Source of the DNA: a bacterium
GTDB lineage: Bacteria > Patescibacteriota > Minisyncoccia > Phycocordibacterales > VMGT01
Reading direction: 5' to 3'
Length of the DNA stretch: 64,000 nucleotides
NCBI GenBank assembly: GCA_030697645.1
Contig: JAUYPI010000015.1
Coordinates: forward strand, 15,583-79,582
Shown here one piece after another: positions 20,583 through 62,679 of the stretch (position 1 is its first letter; each line of letters starts with the position of its first letter). Both the position numbers and the translations under genes were made by a program. The notes below the pieces were generated by a model that saw only the letters and a program-made list of their open reading frames with translations, made no database searches and was not told where the DNA came from.

Positions 20583-20764
20583 AGCTAGGCGGTGTCTTCA
20601 AGGCATGCGCGCGAGAGTTCTTTGACAACAGAATAAGCATACACACAAGACAAAGCAAAAACAAAACGTCTATTCCTTAAAAAAACAGAGAGCAGAAGAA
20701 GTTGTTCCTTCTTTTGTTCCGTCCACAAATAGGGAGGTTGGAGATACTCCAACTTCTATAATTT

Positions 20765-20803
<39 letters not shown>

Positions 20804-20851
20804 GATAAGGCATGCAAGTCATACGGGCCGCACCTCATTGCATTCGGTGCG

Positions 20852-20990
20852 GAATTTTCAATTTTCAATTTTACAATTTTCAAATAATTTCCAATGATTA
20901 AATTTCCAATTTCCAAACACGACGTCGTCGGCGTTTGAAAATTGACCCATTGAAAATTTATTGAAAATTGAAAATTGATAATTGAAAATT
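20852..20990. repeat. Hairpin-array element (AATTTTCAAT family) inserted in the 16S V1 helix
   Basis: Same arm unit and core (caaacacgacgtcgtcggcgtt) as the pil intergenic copies. Flanked by hairpins ccgcacctcattgcattcggtgcgg and gccgcaccgagtgtggcgaggtgcggc. Confidence 0.8.
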
Positions 20991-21190
20991 CCGCCGCACC
21001 GAGTGTGGCGAGGTGCGGCTAGTGGCGAACGAGGCAGTAATACGCAGGAACGTACCCTGGAGACGGGCATAACCAGCCGAAAGGTTGGCTAATTCCCGAT
21101 GGTCCGAGCACATATTTTTGGAGAAAAACAAAAGGCGCATCCTGTACCTGTATAGATACTTTGGATGCGCCCTGCAACATTGAGCGGTTT

Positions 21191-21310
21191 CTAGAGGAAC
21201 AGGAAAGTAGCAATCATTACGGCGATGATACCGACTAAGACCCAAGACATCCAACGAAGCTGACTTGGGCCATAGTCTATTCTTCCGCTCTGTCCTCTCG
21301 CGATTTTCAT
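21191..21310 (-). CDS. Candidate 39-aa single-TM peptide antisense to the 16S V2 insertion
   Basis: aggaggTCGTCatg SD-ATG, then MKIARGQSGRIDYGPSQLRWMSWVLVGIIAVMIATFLFL. It is below the 60-aa cut-off of the ORF track. Coordinates are approximate to a few nt. Confidence 0.3.
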   Translation of the reverse strand: MKIARGQSGRIDYGPSQLRWMSWVLVGIIAVMIATFLFL

Positions 21311-22157
21311 GACGACCTCCTTTTTCGCTGAAGAAAGAAAAGCATAGGGGTCTATATATTGTCAAGTATCTTACTTGGCTTCCAAAAATATGTGCTCGGT
21401 AAAGGAGCAATCTGCTCCGGGAGCGGCCTGCGGGCTATCAGCTAGTTGGTGGGGTAACGGCCTACCAAGGCTCTGACGGCTAGGGGGGGTGAGAGCCCGA
21501 TCCCCGCCGATGACACTGCGACACGGGTCATACACCTACGGGTGGCAGCAGCCGAGAATATTCGACAATGGGCGAAAGCCTGATCGAGCGACGCCGCGTG
21601 GTGGATGAAGCACTTCGGTGCGTAAACACCTTTTATGAGGGAAGAAGTTCGCCGCACCTCATTGCATTCGGTGCGGACATTTCGATATATCGAAATTTCG
21701 AAATATCGAAATGTCCGCCGCACCGAGTGCAGCGAGGTGCGGCGGATTGACGGTACCTCATGAATAAGGGGCTCCTAATCACGTGCCAGCAGGAGCGGTA
21801 ATACGTGAGCCCCAAGCGTTATCCGGAATCACTGGGCGTAAAGGGTGTGTAGGCGGCCGCGTTAGTCCTCCGTTAAATCCCACGGCTCAACCGTGGAGCT
21901 GCGGAGGATACGGCGCGGCTTGAGGGCGCGAGAGGTGTGCGGAACTCACGGTGTAGGGGTGAAATCCGTTGATATCGTGGGGAACACCAAAAGCGAAGGC
22001 AGCACACTGGCGCGCCCCTGACGCTGAAACACGAAAGCGTGGGTAGCGAAGCAGATTAGATACCTGCGTAGTCCACGCCCTAAACTCTGTCCGCTAGCTT
22101 TTCGGAGTATCGACCCTCTGGGAGGCGAAGCTAACGCGTTAAGCGGACCGCCTGGGA

Positions 22158-22189
<32 letters not shown>

Positions 22190-22722
22190 AGACGGGGACC
22201 AGCACAAGCGGTGGATCATGTGGTTCAATTCGATGGTAAACGAAGAACCTCACCAGGGCTTGAAATCCAGATGAACTCGCCTCGAAAGGGGTGCGGCCTT
22301 CACAAGAGGCATCTGGACAGGTGCTGCATGGTTGTCGTCAGTTCGTGGCTTAAGTTGTTCCCTTTAGTGGGGTAACGAACGCAACCCCCGTCGCCTGTTA
22401 TACGTGTCAGGCGAGACTGCCCAGCCCAAAGTGCGGCTCACTTCGGTTCGCCGCAGAATCAAGAAGTATGAAGTATGAAGTATGGAAATGTACGAAGAAA
22501 AACCATAATTCATGATTCATAATTCTTGCTTCTGCATCGAGCGGAGCGAGATGCATTTCGGGCTGGGAGGAAGGCGGGGATGACGCCAAATCAGCATGGC
22601 CCTCTGACGCCCTGGGCTACACACGTGATACAATGGCCGGTACAACGGGTCGCGACGGGGTAACCCTGAGCCAATCCTTATAAAGCCGGCCTCAGTTCGG
22701 ATTGAGGTCTGCAACTCGACCT

Positions 22723-22757
<35 letters not shown>

Positions 22758-23610
22758 TATACTGCGGTGAATACGTTCTCTGGTCTTGTACTCACCGCCC
22801 GTCATGCTAAGGGAGCCGGGAATACCCGAAACCCCGCCCTTTGCTCGCGGAGCAAAGGGCGGGATATATCGAAATTTTGAAATATCGATATGTCCCGCCC
22901 TTTGTTCACTTCGTGAACAAAGGGCGGGGTTACGGTAAGCTCGGTGACAGGAGCAAAGTCGTTGAGACATACTGTCTTGTTGCGACCTATGTGAGCGATC
23001 ACATAGTAAAACCCAACTGATATCGGTGAACCCCAGCGTACACAATTCACAATTTCTAATTTCAATTTTGAATTAGTCATTGAGAATTCGTAGTTGCGCC
23101 AGCTGGGCAATACCGAGGGAAGCCCACTAGGAGCTAGTTTTTTAACTGGTAACTAGTTGCGGCCCCGTAGAGACTTCCTGCACTTTTCTAGAAGTAGAAG
23201 GCGCAGGGGATGGCGTTGAAAAATTCACGCTATAAAACGTTGGCCCCAGCCGTAAAGTTTCCTAAAGAAACATTACGGCTGGGTGAAGATATAGTCCGTG
23301 CCTCAATGTAAATTGAGGGTAACACATGAACAAGGCACCGGTAGCGGAAGCTGTTGGTGGAATCATTCCTAGATCCCGTCCCAAGGCGCGTAAAGCGCGC
23401 CATGTTTAAATATTTAAATGTTTAAACATGGCCAAAATTCGCTTTGCGAATTTTGGCGAGGACTGATCAGGTCGGTCCGAGGGTGGAAGTTTTTCTTCCA
23501 TTCCTCGGAATCATGCTGTGGCTGTCAGCTAAACCAGCTAGCGGAGTTAGATGCAAATTTAGCTTCCAACCGTGGACGGAACAAAAGAGGGAACAAAAAA
23601 CACTCAAAAA

Positions 23611-23902: not shown

Positions 23903-25276
23903 ATGGTTTCGAAATTAAAGTTCTTGGTCGCAGTATTGCTGATGATTGGTCTTGGTCTGCCCATGTCTATGGTGGCAGCCCCGGCGCCAGATGCAGTGTC
24001 TGTCCTTATTTTGGACAGCACAGTAAGCGGAGGGGCTCTATCGCGTGAGGCAGTACTCGCTGCCGCGAACGGGTTCACAGTGGTAGTTGACAGCGCCGCG
24101 GCCTGGGGCGCGAGAACTATGGCTGAATTCGCGACCTTTAGGGCGATCATTCTCGGTGATGCGACGTGCACGGGCGTTGGCGCGGTGGCCGCCGCCGAAG
24201 CAAACAAGGCAGTGTGGGGGCCAGCGATAGATGGCAACGTGATTATCAACGGTACGGACCCGGTATTTCACCAGGGCCAAGGCGGGGATGCGCTTACCGA
24301 AGGCAGCATTAAGTTTGCGGCTGATGAGCCAACTAAGACAGGCGCCTACATCAGTCTGAGCTGCTATTATGCCGGTGCAGCCTCTGGCACACCCGCGCCT
24401 GTGTTGGATCCTTTTGGCAGTTTTACGGTCGTTGGTCAGGGTGGATGCCCCGCAGATTCGCACATCGTGGCAGTGCACCCGGCGCTTGCTGGGATTACTG
24501 ATGCCAGCCTGTCAAACTGGGGTTGTTCTACCCACAACGGGTTTGTGACGTATCCGGCGGACTTCCTCGTTCTTGCTATTTCCGAGGATATCCCTTCAAC
24601 CTATGTGGCGCCTGATGGATCGACTGGCGCCCCCTATATTCTCGCGCGTGGTGAGACGCTCTCGCCGATTCTGTGCGGGAACGGGATTCTGGAGATGACC
24701 GAGGAGTGCGACGACGGTAACGTTGTCAACGGAGATGGATGTTCTGCCCAGTGCAAGATTGAGGTCTATGTACCTGCGTGCGGGAACGGAATCCTTGATT
24801 CAGGCGAGCAGTGCGACGACGGAAACCTGCTGAATGGGGACGGATGTTCGGATGTCTGTAAGTTCGAGAACCAAGACCCCGATTGTAAGAGCGCGTATCC
24901 TGATCCGGCGACCCTTTGGCCACCGAATCATAAGTACGTGACCGTTTCTGTTCTCGGTGTCACGGATCCTGACGGCGATGCAGTCGTTGTCATGGTGAAC
25001 AGCGTGACGCAGGACGAGCCAGTAAATGGTCTCGGTGACGGCGACACCTCGCCCGATGCCGTGATTAATTCTGACGGTACAGTCAAGGTTCGCGCCGAAC
25101 GCTCCGGAACCCCAAAGGTACCAGGTGATGGACGAGTCTATCACATTGGTTTCATGGCGGAAGACGGCATGGGCGGCAAGTGCGCCGGGACTGTCTTAGT
25201 GTGCGTGCCCCACGACATGGGACAGGGCAGCGTCTGTGTAGACGGCGGACCGCTGTATGACTCGCTCATGCCGTAG
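23903..25276 (+). CDS. Secreted protein: signal peptide, N-terminal domain, two myxo-type cysteine-rich repeats, shared C-terminal domain
   Basis: Signal peptide MVSKLKFLVAVLLMIGLGLPMSMVAAPA. Two C-x-N-G-x-L-E/D-x-x-E-x-C-D-D-G-N-x-x-N-G-D-G-C-S repeats (TIGR02232-like; family from memory). A C-terminal ~130-aa domain (WPPNHK...VTDPDGD...GTPKVPGDGRVYH...VCVPHDMGQGSVCVDGGPLYDSLMP) is shared with 25712..27766. Confidence 0.6.
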   Translation: MVSKLKFLVAVLLMIGLGLPMSMVAAPAPDAVSVLILDSTVSGGALSREAVLAAANGFTVVVDSAAAWGARTMAEFATFRAIILGDATCTGVGAVAAAEANKAVWGPAIDGNVIINGTDPVFHQGQGGDALTEGSIKFAADEPTKTGAYISLSCYYAGAASGTPAPVLDPFGSFTVVGQGGCPADSHIVAVHPALAGITDASLSNWGCSTHNGFVTYPADFLVLAISEDIPSTYVAPDGSTGAPYILARGETLSPILCGNGILEMTEECDDGNVVNGDGCSAQCKIEVYVPACGNGILDSGEQCDDGNLLNGDGCSDVCKFENQDPDCKSAYPDPATLWPPNHKYVTVSVLGVTDPDGDAVVVMVNSVTQDEPVNGLGDGDTSPDAVINSDGTVKVRAERSGTPKVPGDGRVYHIGFMAEDGMGGKCAGTVLVCVPHDMGQGSVCVDGGPLYDSLMP

Positions 25277-45107: not shown

Positions 45108-48100
45108 ATGGTAAAAAAGGTGGCACAAAAAAAGGCAAAGAAAGCCGTACAAAAACGTGCGGGAAAAATGAAAACGGCAAAGCCGGGGAATGGCTACGGC
45201 GCCGATCAGATCCAGGTGCTCGAGGGCCTCGAGCCGGTGCGCCGCAGGCCCGGCATGTACATCGGCACGACCGGGCCCGACGGCCTGCATCATCTGGTCG
45301 TCGAGGTGTTTGACAACTCGCGCGACGAGGCGATGGCGGGCTTTGGCGGCGACATCGAGCTTGCGCTTCTCCCGGGTAACCGCGTGCGCGTTGTGGACAA
45401 CGGCCGCGGCATTCCGGTGGAACGCCATCCGCAGACCAAAGTTTCGACACTTGAAACCGTGATGACGACGCTCCATGCGGGAGGCAAGTTCGGCTCCGGC
45501 GGCTACACGGTGAGCGGCGGGCTCCATGGCGTCGGCGTCTCGGTCGTGAACGCGCTCTCGGAGCGGCTCCGCGCCGAGGTGCACCGCGACGGCAGCGCTC
45601 ACGCGCAGGAGTACCGCCGCGGCGAGCCGCTCGCGGCGGCGAAGCGCATCGGCGCGTCGGAGCGCACTGGCACTATCATTACCTTCGAGCCGGACGCAAC
45701 CGTATTTAAAGACGGCATCAGTTTTGACTGGAAGCGCATCGTGGACCACATGCGCCAACAGGCGTACCTCGTGAAAGGAATGCGTATTACGCTCCTTGAT
45801 GCGCGCGCGTATGAGGGGAAGTTCGATGACCAAAAAGTGTTCTACCTGCGTGATCTCGGGCTCGATCTCCCCTCGACGTCGTTTTACTTTGAAGGTGGCC
45901 TGCTCTCGCTCGTACGGTTTTACAATCAGTCGGAGAAGCCGGTGCACAAGAGCATTTTTTATATTGAAAAAGAAGCGCGCGCGCTCGGCGTCGAGTCTGT
46001 GGAAATTGCGTTTCAGTACGTGGACGATATCTCGTACCGCATCCTCGCGTTTGCGAATAATACGTTCAACGGCGAGGGCGGCACACATCTTACCGGCTTC
46101 AAGGGCTCGCTCACTCGCACGCTGAATAGCTACGCGCGCGCGAACAATCTTCTCAAGGAGAAAGACGAAAATTTCACCGGCGAGGACGTGCTCGAGGGGC
46201 TCACCGCGGTGATTAGCGTGAAGCTCCGCGAGATACAGTTTGAAGGGCAGACGAAGGCAAAGCTCGGCTCAGTCGAGGCGCGTACGGCGCTTGAGGGCGT
46301 GATGAACGAGGCGCTTTCGAATTTTCTTGAGGAGAATCCGGACGAAGCGCGCGCGATCATCGGCAAAGTTTCGCTTGCGATGCGGGCGCGGAAAGCCGCG
46401 AAAGCCGCAAAAGACAGCGTGCTCCGCAAAGGCGCGCTCGAGGGCATGACGCTTCCGGGCAAGCTCGCCGACTGTCAGAGCAAAAAGCGCGAGGAGACGG
46501 AACTTTTCGTGGTGGAAGGCGACAGCGCCGGAGGATGTTGGAGTGGAGATACAAAGGTGGCGTTAGCTGACGGACGACATCTTAGCTTTTTAGAGTTGGT
46601 TAAAGAGCATGAGGAAGGCAAGCAGAATTTTTGTTACACCATGCAGGAAAACGGACATATCGGTTTAGCACCAATCGAAAGTCCGAGACGGACGAAACAA
46701 AATGCCGACGTGATTAAGGTGACTCTCGACACAGGCGATGACCTTCTTTGTACCCCCGACCACCTCTTTCGACTCGTGGACGGTAGTTACATTCCTGCGT
46801 ACAACCTAACGTCAAGCCACAGTTTAGCGCCCCTGTATCGCAAAATATCAAAAAAGGGAGAAGGAACACAACTGAACGGGTACGAGATGGTTTTTGACCC
46901 TCAAGCACATAAATGGATGCCAACCCATATTCTTGCTGATATATATAATTTGAAAAAAAACGTCTATGTAACAACTGATGGTAACCACCGGCATCATTTT
47001 GATTTTAATAAGAGGAATAATAATCCGACGAACATTAAACGAGTAACGTATGAGCAGCACATGGCGTACCACCATGCCTACATAGAAAGGACGTTACATC
47101 GTCCTGATGTTAAGCAGAAATCTATTGACTCAAAACGTATCGCGGAGTTTCGTGAACGTGCGAGGGCAAAGTCGCTCGAAAAGCGCGAGCTTTTTAGTGA
47201 GAATGCAAAACGACAGTGGCAGGATGAGGACTATAAGACGTATATGGTCCAAAAATTTCTCGATTACTATTCGAGTAACGAATCGTATCGTAAGCGCAAT
47301 AACGCTCTGCTCGATAAAGCGCAGCGTGAATATTGGAGCGATAACGAAAATCGTCGTGTGCAGTCCGATCGCGTGCGTGTGTTTTTCGAAGCACATCCGG
47401 AACGGAAAGCGTGGTTGTCGCGAGAAGCGAAGCGGCAATGGGACAGCGAATCGCTGCGCGCATGGCGGGGTGAGACAACGCGCCTACAATGGACTCCGGC
47501 GTTTCGTGAAAAACGTCGGGAGGCGTACAACGAGACCTATCTACGTAAGGCGCTCGGTGTCTTGCATGAGCTCTACGCGGAAAACGGCACCATCGATTAT
47601 GCGCGCTATAACGCGCTTCGCAGAGAACGAAATGACCGGAGCATTATTCGCCACGACACAATATGCGAGCGATTTTTTGACGGCGACATGGGACGTATGG
47701 AGGAGGCAGTGGTGAATTATAACCACCGCATCGTAAGGATTGAGCGGCTTGAGGAGCCGATGGATGTTTATGATCTTGAGGTCCCCGGCACGCACAACTT
47801 CGCGCTTGCATCGGGCGTGTTCGTCCACAATAGCGCAAAAATGGCGCGGGACCGGGTAACACAGGCGATTCTGCCGCTCTTCGGCAAGGTGCTCAATGCC
47901 GAGCGCGCGCGGCTTGATAAAATTTTGGCATCGGACAAATTCCGCGCGCTTGTGATCGCGCTCGGCACGGGGATCGGCGAGGGGGTTGATCTCGAGAAGC
48001 TCCGCTACGGCCGCATCATCATCATGGCCGATGCGGACGTTGACGGGTCGCACATCAAGACGCTCTACCTTACCTTTTTTTATCGCCAGCTGCGCGACAT

Positions 48101-54612: not shown

Positions 54613-57600
54613 ATGGATTCTCCATCTCAAGAGCGCATATCGCGCGGTTCTCTTACCGTTCTGGGCGAAGACGATCTGGATGTTCAGCTTCGCGAGGCTG
54701 AGCGCAGTAAGGCGATCCTTAAGGAACGCATGGGGGCAGAGAGCGAGGGTGGCTCAAAAGAAAAACGTTTGGCGGAGCAGGAGCTTCAACGTATGCTCGG
54801 TGAGGGCGATGGCGGCACGGGACGTGAGTCGGAAGTAGAAGCCGCGCGCGGAGAGCGGAACCCGGCACCTTCCACGGAAGGCGCTGAGCGGAGCGATAGG
54901 AAGGTTTCCGCGCCTCCCGAACCTCTGCCGGAGATGGGCTTGGCAAAGAAATTCCCGTCGGTGCCACCTGTGACCGAGAGTTCTCGGAGAGACGAAGACC
55001 CTGCATGGGATGCATTTTTTGGCGACGTAGAGGACGTCTCGCACACGGGAGGGGCCGAGATAGGGGAGCGCGAGGAACCCGCCGCACCTTCCCCGCGAGA
55101 CGCCGCAGCGATTGCGCCAGGGGGTGCGTCGGCTGCGCCTCGGGTATCCGAGCGCGCGGGTGCGGCAGGCGCTGCGGCCGAGTCGGCGGTCCCCATCAAG
55201 CTCGACCAGAGCGAGATGGGCGAGGAGGAGAAAAAGGCAGCGGCGCAAATTTTCGCGGAGATCGAAAAGCTGCCGCCGACCGAGCGCGAGGAGGTGGCGC
55301 TCGGATTTGAGAACTGGAATCTCGCCGTGAAGAAATTTAAGGGCCGTATTATTGACCGCGCGGTGAGCGCGGTGCCCGGTGCGCGCAAAGTCGAGTTTAT
55401 TGATGCGTGGGCGCGCAATTTCAATAAAGAGTATCTTGCGGCAAAGCGTGACATCGAGCGGATTCGCGAGGAGAAAGAGAGCGGCACCTACGCCACAAAG
55501 GGTTGGTGGGGGCAGGCGAAAAACATAGGGTATCTTTACGGTACTGCGGCAAAGTTTGCGCGGCCGGCGCTTTCTGCCGCAGGGTTCATGGGCTGGCCGT
55601 ATAAAGTGTGGATGCTCGGCGCGCTCGCTGCCGCGCGCGCGGCAGAGGTGGGAGCGCAAGTTTCGAGGCAGCGGGTGGCGACGACGCTCCGCGGCATGGA
55701 TGAGAGGGAGGCAGACGAGGCGGCTTCAGAGTTGCGTGCGATGGAGAGCGCGTCTGCTGCGATTAGCCGAGAAGGGGAGGACGCAGAAGCCCGCCGTGAC
55801 TACGAACTTGAGGCGCATGAGGGGCTGCCGGCTGAGTATCAAGCAGCATATGATGAAGCGTGGAATTTGTATGCAGAGGCACGCGAGAAACCCGCTGGGG
55901 GTGAACAGGCGACGAGGGAGGCGCTTGACGCGGTATACGCAAGCAGCCTGCCTCAGGGTCTTGCCGAGCGCATCGCACTCGGAAGCGAAGATCAACAACG
56001 TGATTGGCTTGCACAGCGGATGCAGCGGAAGGTAGGTGAGCGCATCGGAGGAATTGTGCAAGAGATTGATGCGGCGAAGACGCCGGAAGAAAAAGAGGCG
56101 CTGGTGAAAAAACACCGCGCAACGCTTGAGAAGTACGACGCGCTCATTGATTCGACCGGCCGCGTGCACGTGACTGCAGTGCGACTTGATCGGCTTGCGA
56201 CAGCCGGTAAGCTCGCGGTTGCAGGGCTTGCGATTGAGACCGGCGTCAGCGGCGGGTGGGCGCTCGCCGGAGCGGTTAAGTATTGGTGGGAGAGAGTCGA
56301 GCTGGTAGCGAACACAGAGGCGGCTCATTTTGAGAGTCGCGGACAGAAAGCTCCGTTTGAGTTTCGCGACAAAGAAGCTCCGTCTGTGCCTGATGCCCCC
56401 ACACAGCCGCCTACAGCGTCGTCGGCACCACCACCGGTGCCGACCGCGCCGCTCTCTCCGTCACTGCCAGAGGCTCCTGCCGCAGAGGTGAGCGCGGCGG
56501 AGGCGGAGGAGTTACCCAAGGCGCCTGCCGTCGCAGTAGGGGCCGCTGTTGCGCCGCGAATGGATGCAGAAGTCGAGAGTGGTGAGCGTGAACGAGGAAC
56601 TCCCACCGAGGGCGAGCAGTTCTCTGTAGCAGTGGAGGAACCTCACGCGGCAGAGGCGGCATCTCGTGTGGAAGCAGTACCCGAGCAAGCCATTGCGGCC
56701 GAAGAGGTGACAGGGGTACACGCTGGAGTCGAGACAGGACATCGAGGAATCGCGGCGGCAGCGCGAGAGGCTGCGGAGAGTGAGCGTGCGGTGGATAGCA
56801 CTGGCGTGCTCGCGGAGGACGTGGCTACCACAGAGGAGGCCGAAAAAGCAGTTGCCGCCATGCGCGAGACACACGCGGAATCAGTGCTTCCCGGGCGCGA
56901 GAGGCTTCCCGTGCGCAAGGGCGATTCGCCGCTGAGGCTCGCGAAGAAGCTCTACGCAGCGCGTGCGCAAGAACTCGGCTACACCGGTGATATGAAAAAC
57001 GCGGCCGCGCTCGAGCGCTGGGCTACTCGCGCGAGCACGCGGCAGTATGTCGGGCAGTGGCTCGTCGAGCACGCAGGGGATAGCAAAGAGCCGATGGCGC
57101 AGAAGTTTTTTGAAGACGTTGAACACGAGCAGCTCCTCGCGCGCTGGAAGGAGCACGCCGATCGCGGCGCGCTTGAGACGCTCGTGCGGCACCTTCGCGT
57201 CGGGGATTTTAACGATATTCTCAAAGAGAAGGCGCCGAACCTCTCTCTTGCGGGCGGCCATATTGAGCTCGATGAGCGCGGCAATATACTCTCCATTGAC
57301 TCCAAAGGCGATCGTCTCTTGGGCCACAGCGCGGAGCGTCGAGCTTCACTGTCGCCGATCGGAGAACGGGAACCTGTATCTCCGAGGCGCGACACAGTGG
57401 CAGAGCGTGAGCAACCAAGTGTGGTCTCCGTGTCGGGAGAGCATCGTGGTGCGCCCCGCGAGGCAGACACTCCTTTGAGCTACACGTCATTCTGGGAGCG
57501 GAGCGGCTTTGAGAAACCTGCGATCGTTCAGAGCGTGGCGGAGAGGGCGGGGATTACACCGCAGGCACTTGACCGCAGGGAGGAGCTCCTCCTTGACTTC

Positions 57601-58233
57601 TGGGGCAAGCACCCGCACGCTATTGCGCACGACTCGCCCCGCGAGGCGCGTCAGCTTTTTGAGACGCTCTCGCGGGATCCAGCGAAACTTGAAAGCCAGC
57701 TTTCGTTCCTTGACCACTTTGCGTACCGCCGCGAGACGCTCTCCGAAGCCGAGCAGGTGCTTCGCGTGGCCGACTTACTTTCCGAGCGGGTAGCTGCAAC
57801 CGACATCTATCGTTCGATTCTTGCGAATTATGAGGCGGTGCGGCACGTGGCTGATGCTACCCGTCAGGCCGATATTCTCGAACTCTTTCTCTCGCACGGC
57901 GCAAGCAAGCAGCCGCTCGAGCGGCTCACCTTGGGTTGGAACCGTACGCTCTTTCGCGGCGTGTCCGCCTCGCTCGATGAGAGTCTTGATCTCCGTGTGC
58001 GATTTTCGGTACGCAGCAACGCGGTACCAGTAGATATGATTCTCTACCGCAACGGTCGCGTAGCCGTTGACGGGCACGGCTTTGATGGCAATTGGCCAGC
58101 ACGCCGTTTTAAGGCGAATGCCCTACCGCTTACCGAAGACTCGCTTCGCGAAGCACTCGCATTCATTAGCCGATCGGATGGCGAGGGCGCAGTATTCATG
58201 AAGTCCGAGAGGAATGAAGGAATGGGAGGCTAA
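54613..58233 (+). CDS. Large hypothetical membrane-associated protein (1206 aa)
   Basis: Long acidic / Ala-rich low-complexity stretches. Two predicted TM helices at about aa 330-350 and 560-585. The C-terminal ~350 aa are structured. No recognisable family. Confidence 0.4.
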   Translation: MDSPSQERISRGSLTVLGEDDLDVQLREAERSKAILKERMGAESEGGSKEKRLAEQELQRMLGEGDGGTGRESEVEAARGERNPAPSTEGAERSDRKVSAPPEPLPEMGLAKKFPSVPPVTESSRRDEDPAWDAFFGDVEDVSHTGGAEIGEREEPAAPSPRDAAAIAPGGASAAPRVSERAGAAGAAAESAVPIKLDQSEMGEEEKKAAAQIFAEIEKLPPTEREEVALGFENWNLAVKKFKGRIIDRAVSAVPGARKVEFIDAWARNFNKEYLAAKRDIERIREEKESGTYATKGWWGQAKNIGYLYGTAAKFARPALSAAGFMGWPYKVWMLGALAAARAAEVGAQVSRQRVATTLRGMDEREADEAASELRAMESASAAISREGEDAEARRDYELEAHEGLPAEYQAAYDEAWNLYAEAREKPAGGEQATREALDAVYASSLPQGLAERIALGSEDQQRDWLAQRMQRKVGERIGGIVQEIDAAKTPEEKEALVKKHRATLEKYDALIDSTGRVHVTAVRLDRLATAGKLAVAGLAIETGVSGGWALAGAVKYWWERVELVANTEAAHFESRGQKAPFEFRDKEAPSVPDAPTQPPTASSAPPPVPTAPLSPSLPEAPAAEVSAAEAEELPKAPAVAVGAAVAPRMDAEVESGERERGTPTEGEQFSVAVEEPHAAEAASRVEAVPEQAIAAEEVTGVHAGVETGHRGIAAAAREAAESERAVDSTGVLAEDVATTEEAEKAVAAMRETHAESVLPGRERLPVRKGDSPLRLAKKLYAARAQELGYTGDMKNAAALERWATRASTRQYVGQWLVEHAGDSKEPMAQKFFEDVEHEQLLARWKEHADRGALETLVRHLRVGDFNDILKEKAPNLSLAGGHIELDERGNILSIDSKGDRLLGHSAERRASLSPIGEREPVSPRRDTVAEREQPSVVSVSGEHRGAPREADTPLSYTSFWERSGFEKPAIVQSVAERAGITPQALDRREELLLDFWGKHPHAIAHDSPREARQLFETLSRDPAKLESQLSFLDHFAYRRETLSEAEQVLRVADLLSERVAATDIYRSILANYEAVRHVADATRQADILELFLSHGASKQPLERLTLGWNRTLFRGVSASLDESLDLRVRFSVRSNAVPVDMILYRNGRVAVDGHGFDGNWPARRFKANALPLTEDSLREALAFISRSDGEGAVFMKSERNEGMGG

Positions 58234-59760: not shown

Positions 59761-59811
59761 AAAATTTTACAGATTTGAGATTTGAGTTTAATACGGTGTT
59801 ATACTAACCGC

Positions 59812-62679
59812 ATGGATCTTTCTCCCAACCGGACTCTCGAGCGGCGTTCTGAGAGGCATGAGGACGAGCTCTCGGAGCTTCGAGTGCGTCTTGCCCAGGC
59901 TGAGCTCGCGGCTGAGCGCGCGCGCGGGGAGCGGCTGTCTCACGAGACCCGGGAGCGCCTCGCGAGCGAGGAACTTACAAGACACCGCGAGGAGCAAGAG
60001 GCGCACGGCGCGGCGAGCCCGGCCGAGACGGCGGCGATCGTGCTTGACCTCGCGCCGGAGAGTCATGATAGTCAGGTCGGGCTCCTCCTTGGCGTCGCAC
60101 GAGATCAGAGTGTCGGCGTGGCGCTTTCCGCCGCGCACAAGCTCGGCAATCCCCACATCGAGGACGATTTTCACCGCGCGCTCGTCGAGTATATCCGCGA
60201 GGGCTATCCCGCCGAGGGAGTGCGCGAGCGGGATCGGCTTTGGAAAGTGCTCCACATGACGCTCTACGAGATTCTCTTGCCGGAATTGCCGCAGGGAGGC
60301 GAGGCGCGCGAGCGCGGTCTCAAAGGGGTGCTCTCTTCGATGGAGCAGTTTTACTCCGGGATGCGCTCGCTTGCCGAGGGAGCGCGGGGAGGGGACATAT
60401 ACGCGCTCGAACTTGCGCTCCCAAACGTCGGGGACGAGGTGAGCTTCTACGTCGCGGTGCCGAGCGCGCGGCGCGACCTCTTTGAAAAGCAGCTGCTTGC
60501 CGTCTTCCCGCGCGCCGAGATCATTCCGCAGCACAACGACTACAACATTTTCAATGAGCGCGGAGCGCATGCGGCGGTGGTCGCGGCGTTTGGTGCGCGG
60601 CCGGCCTTGCCGCTCCGGCTTTACGAGAGCTTCGACTATGATCCTCTCAATGTCATCGCGAATGCGTTTTCAAAAATAGAACGCGCGGGCGAGGGCGCGG
60701 CGCTTCAGTTCCTGGTTCGCCCCTCGGGCGGCGAGCGCTACCAGCGGCACTTTCGCACCATACTGAAGAACGTGCGTGAAGGGATGCTGCTCGCGGAAGC
60801 GCTCGAAACCCCGGAGAGCATACTTGGCGAGTTCGCGGCGAGCGTGCGGGATTTTGTTTTCCAGCGAAAAAAATCGAAACGCGAGGAAGAAGACAGAAAA
60901 CAAAAACCGCCGAGCGTAGACCAGGCAGGAGTGGAACTCCTCGAGCGCAAGGTGGCGACTCCTCTCGTCGAGGCCGCAATCCGCATCGTCGCGTCGGCTG
61001 GAGACGAGCCCCGGGCCCGGGCGATCCTCGACGAACTTGTCGCCGCGTTCCACCAGTTTGAGGACCCGCAGGGGAACCGCCTGCGCTTCTCTCGTCTCTC
61101 GCGCGGCGCGCTCTCTGCCGGCCTTCGCTCCTTCAGTTTTCGCGAGACCGGCGCCGCACCTCTGCTCCCGCTCTCGCTCCGCGAGCTCACTACGCTCTTT
61201 CATTTCCCGGTCGCAGGAGAGCTCGCGACGCCGCAGGTGAGGTTCTCACGCGCTCGAGCCGGCGCGGCGCCCGCGCTCGCCTCGTTTAGAGATACATCCC
61301 GAGCGGTGAGCGCCCCTGCCGCGGCAAGCTCCGCTTATAGCGATCGCGTCGTACGCGACGCGACTTCGGGTGCGACGAGCGCAGCTCGGCAGAGCGAGGG
61401 GGTGGCGCTCGGCGTGAACCGCTTTCGTGGCGCCGAGACTCGCGTCTCGATCGCGCCGGAGGACCGGTTGCGGCATCTCTATGTGATCGGCCAGACCGGG
61501 ACGGGCAAGTCGACGCTCCTGCGGAACATGATCGTCGAGGACATCGCCGCGGGCGAAGGCGTGTGCATGATAGATCCGCACGGCTCGGATGTCGCGGAAG
61601 TGCTTGCGGCCGTGCCGCGCGAGCGCTACGGTGACGTGATTTACTTTGACCCGGGCTATAGCGCGCGTCCGATGGCGCTCAATATGCTCGAGTATGACTC
61701 GAGGCACCCGGAGCAAAAAACGTTCGTCGTGAACGAGCTCCTCGGCATTTTCCGCAAGCTCTTCGGCGCAGTCCCCGAGTCGATGGGGCCAGCGTTCGAG
61801 CAGTACTTCCGCAACAGTGCGCTTCTCGTGATGGAGGATCCCGCCTCCGGCAACACCCTCGTTGATGTCGCGCGCGTCTTATCCGACAAGCGTTTTCGCG
61901 AGCGGAAACTCGCGCAGAACCGCAACCCCCTCATCGCGCAGTTCTGGGAGAATGCCGAGCGCACGACCGGCGAGCAGGCGCTCGCGAACTTCGCGCAGTA
62001 CGTGACCAACAAGTTCGACGTCTTCCTCTCGAATGACGTCATGCGTCCGATCATCGCGCAGCAGCATTCGGCGTTTTCGTTCCGCGACGTGATGGACGGG
62101 CGGAAAGTGCTGCTCGTCAATCTCGCTAAGGGGCGGCTCGGGGATATCAACGCGCACCTCATCGGGCTTGTTCTCGTGGGGAAAATCTTGATGGCTGCGC
62201 TCTCGCGGGTTGACACCCCCGGGCTCGCGCTCCCGCCGTTTTACCTCTATCTTGACGAGTTTCAAAACATTACGACCGACTCGATTGCGGTGATCCTCTC
62301 CGAGGCGCGCAAGTACGGCCTCGGACTCACGATCGCGCACCAGTTTATCGGCCAGCTCTCGGAGAACATCCGCGACGCGGTCTTCGGCAATGTCGGTTCA
62401 CTCGTCGCGTTCCGCGTCGGCGCGGACGACGCCGAGGTGCTCGAGAAGCAGTTCGCGCCGGACTTCCGGGCGCACGACCTGATGAATATCGAAAACCGAA
62501 ACGCGTACGTGCGCCTGCTCTCGCACGGCCGTCCGACGAAGCCTTTCACGATTGAGACTGAGCCGCCGGAGAGCGGCGAGCCACTACAGGTTGAAGACTT
62601 GAAGCTCCGGTCTTATACCCGCTACGGCCGTCCGCGGGAGGAAGTGGAGAACGAAATCTTAGAGCGATATCGAGCGTAA
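59812..62679 (+). CDS. VirD4/TraG/TraD-like coupling-protein-type ATPase with a ~450-aa N-terminal domain of unknown function
   Basis: Walker A YVIGQTGTGKSTLLRNM, Walker B FYLYLDEFQN, then SEARKYGLGLTIAHQFIGQL...GNVGSLVAFRVGADDAE, which matches the T4SS coupling-protein C-terminal region (ARKYG...QS.SQL). No N-terminal TM segments. The family assignment is from memory, not a search. Confidence 0.55.
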   Translation: MDLSPNRTLERRSERHEDELSELRVRLAQAELAAERARGERLSHETRERLASEELTRHREEQEAHGAASPAETAAIVLDLAPESHDSQVGLLLGVARDQSVGVALSAAHKLGNPHIEDDFHRALVEYIREGYPAEGVRERDRLWKVLHMTLYEILLPELPQGGEARERGLKGVLSSMEQFYSGMRSLAEGARGGDIYALELALPNVGDEVSFYVAVPSARRDLFEKQLLAVFPRAEIIPQHNDYNIFNERGAHAAVVAAFGARPALPLRLYESFDYDPLNVIANAFSKIERAGEGAALQFLVRPSGGERYQRHFRTILKNVREGMLLAEALETPESILGEFAASVRDFVFQRKKSKREEEDRKQKPPSVDQAGVELLERKVATPLVEAAIRIVASAGDEPRARAILDELVAAFHQFEDPQGNRLRFSRLSRGALSAGLRSFSFRETGAAPLLPLSLRELTTLFHFPVAGELATPQVRFSRARAGAAPALASFRDTSRAVSAPAAASSAYSDRVVRDATSGATSAARQSEGVALGVNRFRGAETRVSIAPEDRLRHLYVIGQTGTGKSTLLRNMIVEDIAAGEGVCMIDPHGSDVAEVLAAVPRERYGDVIYFDPGYSARPMALNMLEYDSRHPEQKTFVVNELLGIFRKLFGAVPESMGPAFEQYFRNSALLVMEDPASGNTLVDVARVLSDKRFRERKLAQNRNPLIAQFWENAERTTGEQALANFAQYVTNKFDVFLSNDVMRPIIAQQHSAFSFRDVMDGRKVLLVNLAKGRLGDINAHLIGLVLVGKILMAALSRVDTPGLALPPFYLYLDEFQNITTDSIAVILSEARKYGLGLTIAHQFIGQLSENIRDAVFGNVGSLVAFRVGADDAEVLEKQFAPDFRAHDLMNIENRNAYVRLLSHGRPTKPFTIETEPPESGEPLQVEDLKLRSYTRYGRPREEVENEILERYRA

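Follow-up and report, generated by a model that had tools for sequence, protein, structure and literature searches.

A GyrB intein from a Patescibacteria-like bacterium with a predicted HNH homing endonuclease and a nuclease-associated helical repeat array

The stretch of 64,000 nucleotides analyzed here, referred to below as the window (contig JAUYPI010000015.1 of assembly GCA_030697645.1), contains a gene for DNA gyrase subunit B (gyrB) that is interrupted by a complete intein of 432 amino acids (aa). This intein is a further representative of an already known, very widely distributed family of GyrB inteins, typified by the Ssp GyrB intein of Synechocystis sp. PCC 6803 and placed in group 22 of the His-Me finger nucleases. 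In all likelihood it is a bifunctional, mobile class-1 intein of the Ssp GyrB type, in which a splicing domain of the Hint superfamily surrounds an insert that is a modular HNH homing endonuclease. Within that insert the predicted HNH core is followed by an array of short basic helices, which is probably a nuclease-associated DNA-binding module, as judged from its sequence and by analogy with related arrays in other nucleases.

The gyrB host gene and the splicing domain

Translation of positions 46536 to 47831 resolves the splice junctions as VVEGDSAGG / CWSGDTKV at the N-terminal end and ASGVFVHN / SAKMARD at the C-terminal end, such that the Toprim motif EGDSAGG/S of DNA gyrase subunit B is interrupted in frame. 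The length, boundaries and clear junctions described in the original prediction, which had been made from the DNA letters alone, are thus exact, and the comparison with intein profiles that it had proposed agrees with them. Specifically, the Pfam model Intein_splicing (PF14890) matches the window intein with 61.5 bits against a cut-off of 35.8 (E 1.1e-16), and the models for the intein N terminus (TIGR01445) and C terminus (TIGR01443, 9e-8) both exceed their cut-offs. The set of splicing residues is complete and comprises Cys1, the block B motif CTPDH (T73, H76), the C-terminal stretch DVYDLEV...THNFALASGVFVHN and Ser+1, and in the alignment of the GyrB-intein family the columns of the splicing blocks are invariant or nearly so.

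Structure prediction with AlphaFold2, run with the family alignment, gave a predicted local distance difference test (pLDDT) score of 87 for the whole intein and of 91.6 for the insert alone, with values of 95-97 in the Hint N-terminal region. When the whole-intein model was compared with solved folds using Foldseek, the structures retrieved were the Npu and Ssp DnaE, RecA and DnaB inteins, at E-values down to 2.5e-6. The element is, on these observations, a class-1 intein of the Hint superfamily located at GDSAGG/C...N/S in gyrB. Its intact catalytic blocks suggest that it would undergo protein splicing, as has been demonstrated for the related Ssp GyrB intein (PMC3620165). The components of the locus are collected in Table 1.

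Table 1. Features of the interrupted gyrB gene. Positions refer to the window and residue numbers to the intein.
Feature	Position	Strand	Evidence
gyrB open reading frame (ORF), 1155 aa	45108..48575	+	ORF list; Pfam HATPase_c, DNA_gyraseB, Toprim, DNA_gyraseB_C
gyrB N-extein: ATPase and transducer domains and start of Toprim, ending ...VVEGDSAGG	45108..46535	+	Pfam HATPase_c, DNA_gyraseB
Complete intein, 432 aa, class-1 type (Cys1 ... His-Asn, then Ser+1)	46536..47831	+	Translation, intein profiles
Hint N-terminal splicing region, residues 1-104	46536..46847	+	Alignment conservation, AlphaFold, Foldseek
Predicted HNH (His-Me finger) homing-endonuclease domain, residues 105-189	46848..47102	+	PHROG, fold, structural neighbors, dN/dS
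HNH motif core HRHHFDFNKRNNNPTNIKRVTYEQHMAYHH, residues 151-180	46986..47075	+	Conservation among 54 homologues
Basic helical repeat array, residues 190-350, about nine helices	47103..47585	+	AlphaFold, unit hhalign, unit HMM
C-terminal three-helix subdomain of the insert, residues 351-395	47586..47720	+	AlphaFold helices, conserved residues
Hint C-terminal splicing region, residues 396-432, blocks F and G, ending THNFALASGVFVHN	47721..47831	+	TIGR01443, invariant columns
gyrB C-extein: SAKMARD..., remainder of Toprim, GyrB C-terminal domain, stop codon	47832..48575	+	Pfam Toprim, DNA_gyraseB_C

A predicted HNH core within the insert

Directly N-terminal to the repeats, the window intein carries a segment that both sequence and structural model identify as a putative HNH (His-Me finger) homing-endonuclease core. 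In the original prediction the intein was said to possess neither an HNH motif nor any recognizable homing-endonuclease core, a statement that is contradicted by the presence of HRHHFDFNKRNNNPTNIKRVTYEQHMAYHH, an HNH motif. Thus the search for endonuclease motifs suggested at that time leads to the opposite result, the motif being both intact and conserved. Among 54 homologues, H153, H154, K159, N162 and N166 are invariant, while D156, H175 and H179 are kept in at least 90%, a pattern from which putative catalytic, structural and metal-ligand roles can be proposed residue by residue. Consistent with this assignment, HNH-endonuclease families of the PHROG collection match residues 105-200 (3.3e-6 and 4.2e-4), and the Pfam model HNH_3 reaches 60.9 bits, above its threshold, in the homologous GyrB intein P0227. 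In the published classification of His-Me finger nucleases, group 22 (HNH_3) is annotated as "gyrase subunit B intein; dCTP deaminase intein" (PMC5714182).

Since the fold search with the whole intein returned Hint domains only, the insert was modeled separately. The resulting model contains a beta-hairpin and a helix at residues 117-140, N-terminal to a unit made up of two strands (151-154 and 167-170) and a helix (172-183), which is the beta-beta-alpha-metal topology. Of the solved structures in the PDB, I-HmuI ranks first and I-PpoI second in similarity to this model. Comparison with the predicted structures in BFVD gave as top match a Hint-domain protein of Bacillus phage SP-15 (292 columns, E 3e-6) and as second match a terminase intein; ranked below these two are dozens of HNH homing endonucleases of phages and giant viruses at a probability of 1.0. 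The predicted HNH domain would nick or cleave DNA in a metal-dependent manner.

A LAGLIDADG endonuclease was also considered and can be ruled out, given that the fold is that of an HNH domain followed by an all-helical repeat and that Pfam returned no LAGLIDADG family on the intein (E <= 1) or on its sub-regions (E <= 10). This part of the original prediction accordingly stands. The same text had named a LAGLIDADG domain spanning the repeat region as the finding that would overturn it; none is present, but the test was the wrong one, the endonuclease being of the HNH type.

A basic array of helical repeats and a C-terminal subdomain

The structure prediction recommended for the repeat region yields about nine consecutive helices, which the AlphaFold models place at residues 190-200, 203-215, 217-229, 231-247, 249-267, 270-286, 288-303, 305-318 and 321-350. 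The repeat unit consists of a single helix and a tight turn, conforms to the pattern S-x2-A-[KR]-x-Q-[WYF]-x-[DNST]-x-E-[YFLN]-[RK], and recurs with a period of about 17-18 aa, so that 6-7 units are recognizable within residues ~200-340. The existence of tandem repeats, as originally proposed, is borne out by family profiles and by a hidden Markov model (HMM) of the unit, while the proposed period of about 25 aa has to be shortened. The repeats exist at the protein level only, as no DNA-level tandem repeats were found in positions 46400-47950, and autocorrelation of the single sequence is weakly periodic (z ~3.2 at lags 9 and 17; global p 0.085).

Comparison of profiles using hhalign brings out the internal repetition more clearly. 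Within the helical region, residues 215-232 resemble residues 289-306 (E 7.5e-6), and when individual units are compared, unit 1 (215-230) matches unit 5 (288-304) at P 2.6e-12, unit 5 matches unit 6 at 9e-6, unit 1 matches unit 6 at 4e-5, and the pairs of units 1 and 3 and of units 3 and 7 each reach ~5e-4. In addition, a unit HMM trained on unrelated free-standing nucleases only finds six units in the intein (221-234, 239-249, 261-271, 281-292, 295-305 and 321-327). On the array this model scores 12.7 bits, as compared with -0.5 +/- 3.5 (maximum 5.6) in a control of 200 shuffles of the intein region, which is ~3.7 standard deviations above the mean.

The array is basic, with 37 K+R against 28 D+E, a net charge of +9 and a pI of 9.7 (the family mean net charge is +9.7), and in the family alignment each unit has an invariant aromatic position and an invariant Arg/Lys position. 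The suggestion of a DNA-binding module in the repeat region has gained from these data and from the association of related arrays with nucleases, and DNA binding by the repeats may be proposed by analogy. C-terminal to the array lies a subdomain of three helices (355-365, 373-381 and 385-393; pLDDT >90) in which R362, R379, F381 and A391 are nearly invariant among the 54 homologues. It is possibly helix-turn-helix-like, and Pfam gave no match to it at E <= 10 in a search of residues 190-395.

Degeneration was considered as an origin of the divergent repeats. The reading of them as pseudogenized or degenerate remnants was rejected in view of their ratio of nonsynonymous to synonymous substitution rates (dN/dS, 0.08-0.19) together with the constant length of the family members. 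In the literature searched, the repeat array of the GyrB-intein family is apparently undescribed, and a search for the repeat motif string led to nitrile-hydratase-type leader peptides only.

Related arrays in free-standing nucleases

When a set of 1.84 billion representative proteins was searched with the helical-region profile, only 333 matched, and these consist of GyrB inteins and of proteins of 200-730 aa with long arrays. In the latter, free-standing group, the units closely resemble one another and are 17-18 aa in length, with SExxKKxWxDPEYRxKM as a typical form, and they include SERAKKMWENEEYKKKMSK, WQDPEYREKM and YFEDHPEARKE. A Pfam census of 38 array-bearing proteins other than GyrB revealed arrays fused to GIY-YIG (8 proteins, and 2 more of SegE type), REase_MTES_1575 (3), DUF559 (3), Vsr (2), Phage endonuclease I (2) and HNH_3 (1), as well as arrays accompanied by the NUMOD-like domain of I-HmuI (2), NUMOD3 (1) or NUMOD1 (1); the MTES_1575, DUF559 and Vsr matches amount to 8 combined. 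These free-standing nucleases bear up to ~18 units, often in proteins with no other recognizable DNA-binding domain.

Five of them (P0209, P0213, P0194, P0232 and P0252) display near-perfect units fused to GIY-YIG, Vsr/DUF559, MTES_1575 or Mom-like domains, and their arrays reach Pfam only via the GerD model (PF17898, 3.7e-23 on P0213). This suggests a repeat family that has yet to be modeled and, possibly, a GerD model whose scope is mis-set. The units of ~18 aa have neither a Pfam model nor a solved structure. Tentatively, and with somewhat less than even confidence, the W-x-(D/N)-P-E-(Y/F)-R units could be regarded as distinct, as yet unnamed tandem helical DNA-binding repeats associated with nucleases, in effect a further 'NUMOD'. 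Such repeats would have been recruited independently by several nuclease types, namely HNH inteins and GIY-YIG, HNH, Vsr/DUF559-type and endonuclease-I-type enzymes, and the length and identity of the recognized DNA would depend on how many units an array has and on their sequence.

Distribution, composition and selection

The 448 protein homologues returned by a word-indexed search are almost without exception GyrB inteins. Complete family members are mostly 430-436 aa long and ~50% identical to the window intein, and the closest among the matches listed come from metagenome-assembled genomes of Patescibacteria (58-64% identical). When one genome per species was scanned with the intein alignment, at least 550 species genomes were found to encode a relative. 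In the best 80 of these genomes, residues 1-432 are fully covered at 49-64% identity, and these 80 come from 10 or more bacterial phyla and from 4-5 lineages of archaea. The bacteria among them include Patescibacteria, Omnitrophota, Planctomycetes, Gammaproteobacteria, Margulisiibacteriota, Acidobacteriota, Cyanobacteria (Anabaena, Okeania, Rivularia, Pleurocapsa), Chloroflexota, Spirochaetia, Deinococcota and Desulfobulbia, while the archaea include Methanosarcinales, Methanoperedens, Woesearchaeota, Nanoarchaeota and Micrarchaeota. The insertion site, GDSAGG/.../S[AS]K, is the same in 58 of 58 loci with parsable junctions, and occupation of a single site across many phyla is as expected of an active homing element.

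A few family members are shortened (229-371 aa) and have lost helical units, the HNH motif or both; such shortened and degenerate copies are in keeping with the customary homing cycle, in which invasion and fixation are followed by decay. Matches to the helical profile also include GyrB precursors with two inteins (P0130, P0135 and P0227), which indicates that gyrB is a multi-site intein target. In P0130 (1608 aa), the HNH intein is joined by a second intein (LAGLIDADG_3, HTH_3) further into Toprim, and P0227 has an extra N-terminal Hint insertion in the GyrB ATPase domain.

The window intein is compositionally foreign to its host gene. Its guanine-plus-cytosine (GC) content is 0.482, compared with 0.602 in the N-extein and 0.592 in the C-extein, and the difference is larger at third codon positions (GC3 of 0.51, against 0.744 and 0.721). 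The AT-rich 5' half noted in the original prediction is equally evident, as the first 750 nucleotides of the intein fall within the lowest 0.4% of 750-nucleotide windows across the 64 kb, and the HNH segment, with a GC content of 0.39, is the lowest of the gene. From 5' to 3' the GC3 of the intein climbs, from 0.32-0.44 at 46836-47135 to 0.62-0.69 at 47436-47831, where it comes close to the 0.72 of the exteins. This gradient might reflect amelioration that proceeded unevenly, a mosaic origin or a co-conversion tract.

Across 64 inteins, mean pairwise identity is 0.60 in Hint-N, 0.54 in the HNH domain, 0.47 in the helical array, 0.40 in the three-helix subdomain and 0.73 in Hint-C. The dN/dS of the HNH segment is 0.06-0.13 in the three of four close pairs where it could be estimated, and the 0.08-0.19 cited above for the array derives from four close pairs. 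These low ratios indicate that both segments are maintained by purifying selection, as would be the case for an active homing enzyme.

Comparison with known systems

The Ssp GyrB intein resides in the same host protein and apparently at the same Toprim insertion point, before Ser+1, as the window intein. It is 435 aa long, and an HNH-type endonuclease was reportedly first recognized in it by Dalgaard and colleagues in 1997. Members of the Ssp GyrB group from cyanobacteria are ~50% identical to the window intein over the full length, and group 22 of the His-Me finger nucleases likewise has a central endonuclease domain of the HNH_3 type. The Ssp GyrB intein ends in GVFVHN followed by Ser, which is identical to the end of the window intein (PMC2794532). 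Naturally occurring as a full-length element, it has been converted to a splicing-competent mini-intein by deletion of the central endonuclease domain (PMC3620165). The probable likeness to the window intein is one of site, size class, terminal hexapeptide and cyanobacterial homologues, and the two differ in host, that of the window intein being a Patescibacteria-like bacterium.

A second comparison is offered by I-HmuI (PDB 1U3E), in which, as in the insert, an N-terminal beta-hairpin and a beta-beta-alpha-metal nuclease precede an extended, helix-rich DNA-binding region. I-HmuI differs in being free-standing and intron-encoded and in having two NUMOD-like helices and a helix-turn-helix in place of a nine-helix array, and its resemblance to the insert is structural only, with a Foldseek E of 3.1 and no sequence-level match in the PDB.

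The array itself invites comparison with NUMOD3 of I-TevI and I-BmoI, which also consists of short, basic, single-helix modules that can be repeated in tandem C-terminal to a nuclease. In I-TevI and I-HmuI, NUMOD3 is a repeated single helix lying in the minor groove (PMC2853131). The repeats related to the window array share the NUMOD-like trait of occurring in tandem C-terminal to diverse nuclease domains, and the two kinds of module co-occur in P0252, where they stand side by side, and in P0235, on whose array the NUMOD3 model scores 18.2 bits against a cut-off of 20.4 (E 0.0024) and thus remains sub-threshold. Their consensus sequences differ, however, that of NUMOD3 being H-S-x-E-T-K-x-K-I-S and that of the present repeat W-x-D/N-P-E-Y/F-R, and Pfam NUMOD3 (PF07460) has no match at E <= 10 on residues 190-395 of the window intein. 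By sequence, then, the window repeats would be NUMOD-like in role and not members of NUMOD3.

Finally, the architecture of a Hint domain with HNH_3 is held in common with the inteins of the cyanophage CL131 dCTP deaminase, the SP-15 Hint protein, the terminase and the RtcB family. The SP-15 Hint protein and the terminase intein align structurally with the insert over 258-292 columns, helices included, and the NCBIfam model RtcB_rel_intein2 matches the window intein at 6.5e-34. Splicing has been demonstrated for the CL131 dCTP deaminase intein (PMC6293099). These inteins differ from that of the window in both host protein and insertion site.

Proposed mechanism and alternative explanations

The reading favored here, and held with considerable confidence, is that of a bifunctional mobile intein with a modular HNH homing endonuclease. 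Residues 1-104 and 396-432, which make up the Hint domain, would excise the intein post-translationally and ligate GyrB. Within the insert of 291 residues, an I-HmuI-like nuclease made up of the beta-hairpin and the beta-beta-alpha-metal unit (residues ~115-185) would be followed by the basic array of about nine short helices, formed largely by 6-7 degenerate units of ~18 aa (residues ~190-350), and by the small three-helix subdomain (residues 351-395). Both of these helical parts may lie along an extended stretch of an intein-less gyrB allele and so position an HNH active site that is itself non-specific, such that DNA close to the insertion point would be nicked or cut; the intein-bearing copy would then serve as template for repair, and the element would spread, that is, undergo homing. 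The scheme builds on direct observations of architecture, conservation and purifying selection, on the association of the repeats with nucleases, on the cross-phylum distribution at a single site and on the foreign composition.

Several observations weigh against this reading. On the window intein itself, Pfam HNH_3 (PF13392) scores 12.3-14.9 bits over residues 153-176, where the gathering cut-off is 24.8. The Foldseek E-values relating the insert to solved HNH structures are non-significant (I-HmuI, E = 3.1), and sequence searches of the PDB with the HNH profile and with the helical-region profile produced chance-level matches only. The insert model has a predicted template modeling (pTM) score of 0.45 despite its high local confidence, which limits what can be read from it about the overall shape of the array. 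The motif W-x-DPE-Y/F-R has counterparts in non-DNA-binding proteins, namely GerD, nitrile hydratase (its alpha subunit and leader peptides) and the DP domains of STI1, and the helices may therefore be no more than a generic helical scaffold. Furthermore, no HNH-type intein endonuclease is known to have been characterized biochemically.

Some of these points bear on an alternative view of the array, according to which it serves as a rigid spacer or ruler, similar to the linker of I-TevI, between the HNH site and residues 351-395, or holds the nuclease at a distance from the Hint domain. A run of nine consecutive short helices with high local confidence and low pTM would suit such a role, as would the observation that P0061 and P0063, which have fewer units, retain the HNH domain and the three-helix subdomain, and what is repeated is a helix-capping motif of a generic kind, shared with proteins without DNA binding. 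The strongly basic character of the array (net +9), the invariant aromatic and Arg/Lys positions in each unit and a dN/dS as low as that of the nuclease domain all speak for more than a spacer, and free-standing nucleases with ~18 units and often no other DNA-binding domain are hard to explain on this basis. The spacer is accordingly considered unlikely.

Rather less probable still is a role of the repeats in protein-protein contacts, whether with gyrase, a repair factor or another copy of the intein, in the manner of STI1 DP or GerD, or else in the regulation of splicing. Related arrays do match GerD and STI1-HOP DP, with strengths ranging from weak to strong (3.7e-23 for GerD on P0213); yet the repeat region of the window intein gives no GerD or STI1 match in Pfam even at E <= 10, and the repeats are basic, are fused to at least four nuclease folds and stand beside NUMOD domains in otherwise unrelated proteins. 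The view in keeping with the original prediction, that an endonuclease was lost or never present, that the central region is a novel non-nuclease module and that the intein is immobile or moves by some unknown mechanism, has very little left to recommend it: none of the endonuclease families in Pfam scores above its gathering threshold on the window intein and no LAGLIDADG domain was found, but set against this are an HNH motif with all of its conserved catalytic residues, the PHROG match at 3.3e-6, the HNH structural neighbors of the insert model, above-threshold HNH_3 scores in homologues, purifying selection on the HNH segment and the occupation of one site across many phyla.

Other features of the window

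The genes neighboring gyrB are ordinary chromosomal genes, with pheT upstream and adenylate-kinase-like and sigma-70 genes close by. Elsewhere, the window contains a bacterial 16S rRNA gene (20758-23318, + strand) that measures 2252 nucleotides against a model of 1533 and thus carries ~700 nucleotides of insertions, as is typical of rRNA genes of the candidate phyla radiation (CPR)/Patescibacteria (compare PMC11270868). Together with the Patescibacteria origin of the nearest intein relatives, these insertions make a CPR/Patescibacteria host most likely. A group I intron (RF00028, 51.8 bits; 22954-23318) is located at, or overlaps, the 3' end of the 16S gene, and the lowest GC content of the window occurs around 23201. 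Within the insertions the plus strand has no ORF of 70 aa or longer, which leaves no obvious candidate for a homing endonuclease. Directly downstream of the rRNA and intron, an ORF of 457 aa (23903-25276, +) encodes DUF4215 cysteine-rich repeats (1.6e-14). Further along, an ORF of 1206 aa (54613-58233, +), for which Pfam gave no match at 1e-4, precedes one of 965 aa (59782-62679, +) with signatures of HerA/TrwB/TraG-type coupling-protein ATPases, and the two may belong to a conjugative or type IV secretion-like element.

Implications

The locus is best described as a normal gyrB gene with a mobile intein of a well-known type, and the claim that this intein has no endonuclease should be dropped. 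Widespread as the family is, its nuclease and helical array have no sequence-detectable relative among solved structures. The array, which is shared with free-standing nucleases of at least four catalytic folds, points to a DNA-targeting module that has so far gone unmodeled and that deserves a Pfam family of its own. Should every helix read DNA in a step of fixed size, arrays of this kind could serve as an engineerable recognition scaffold.

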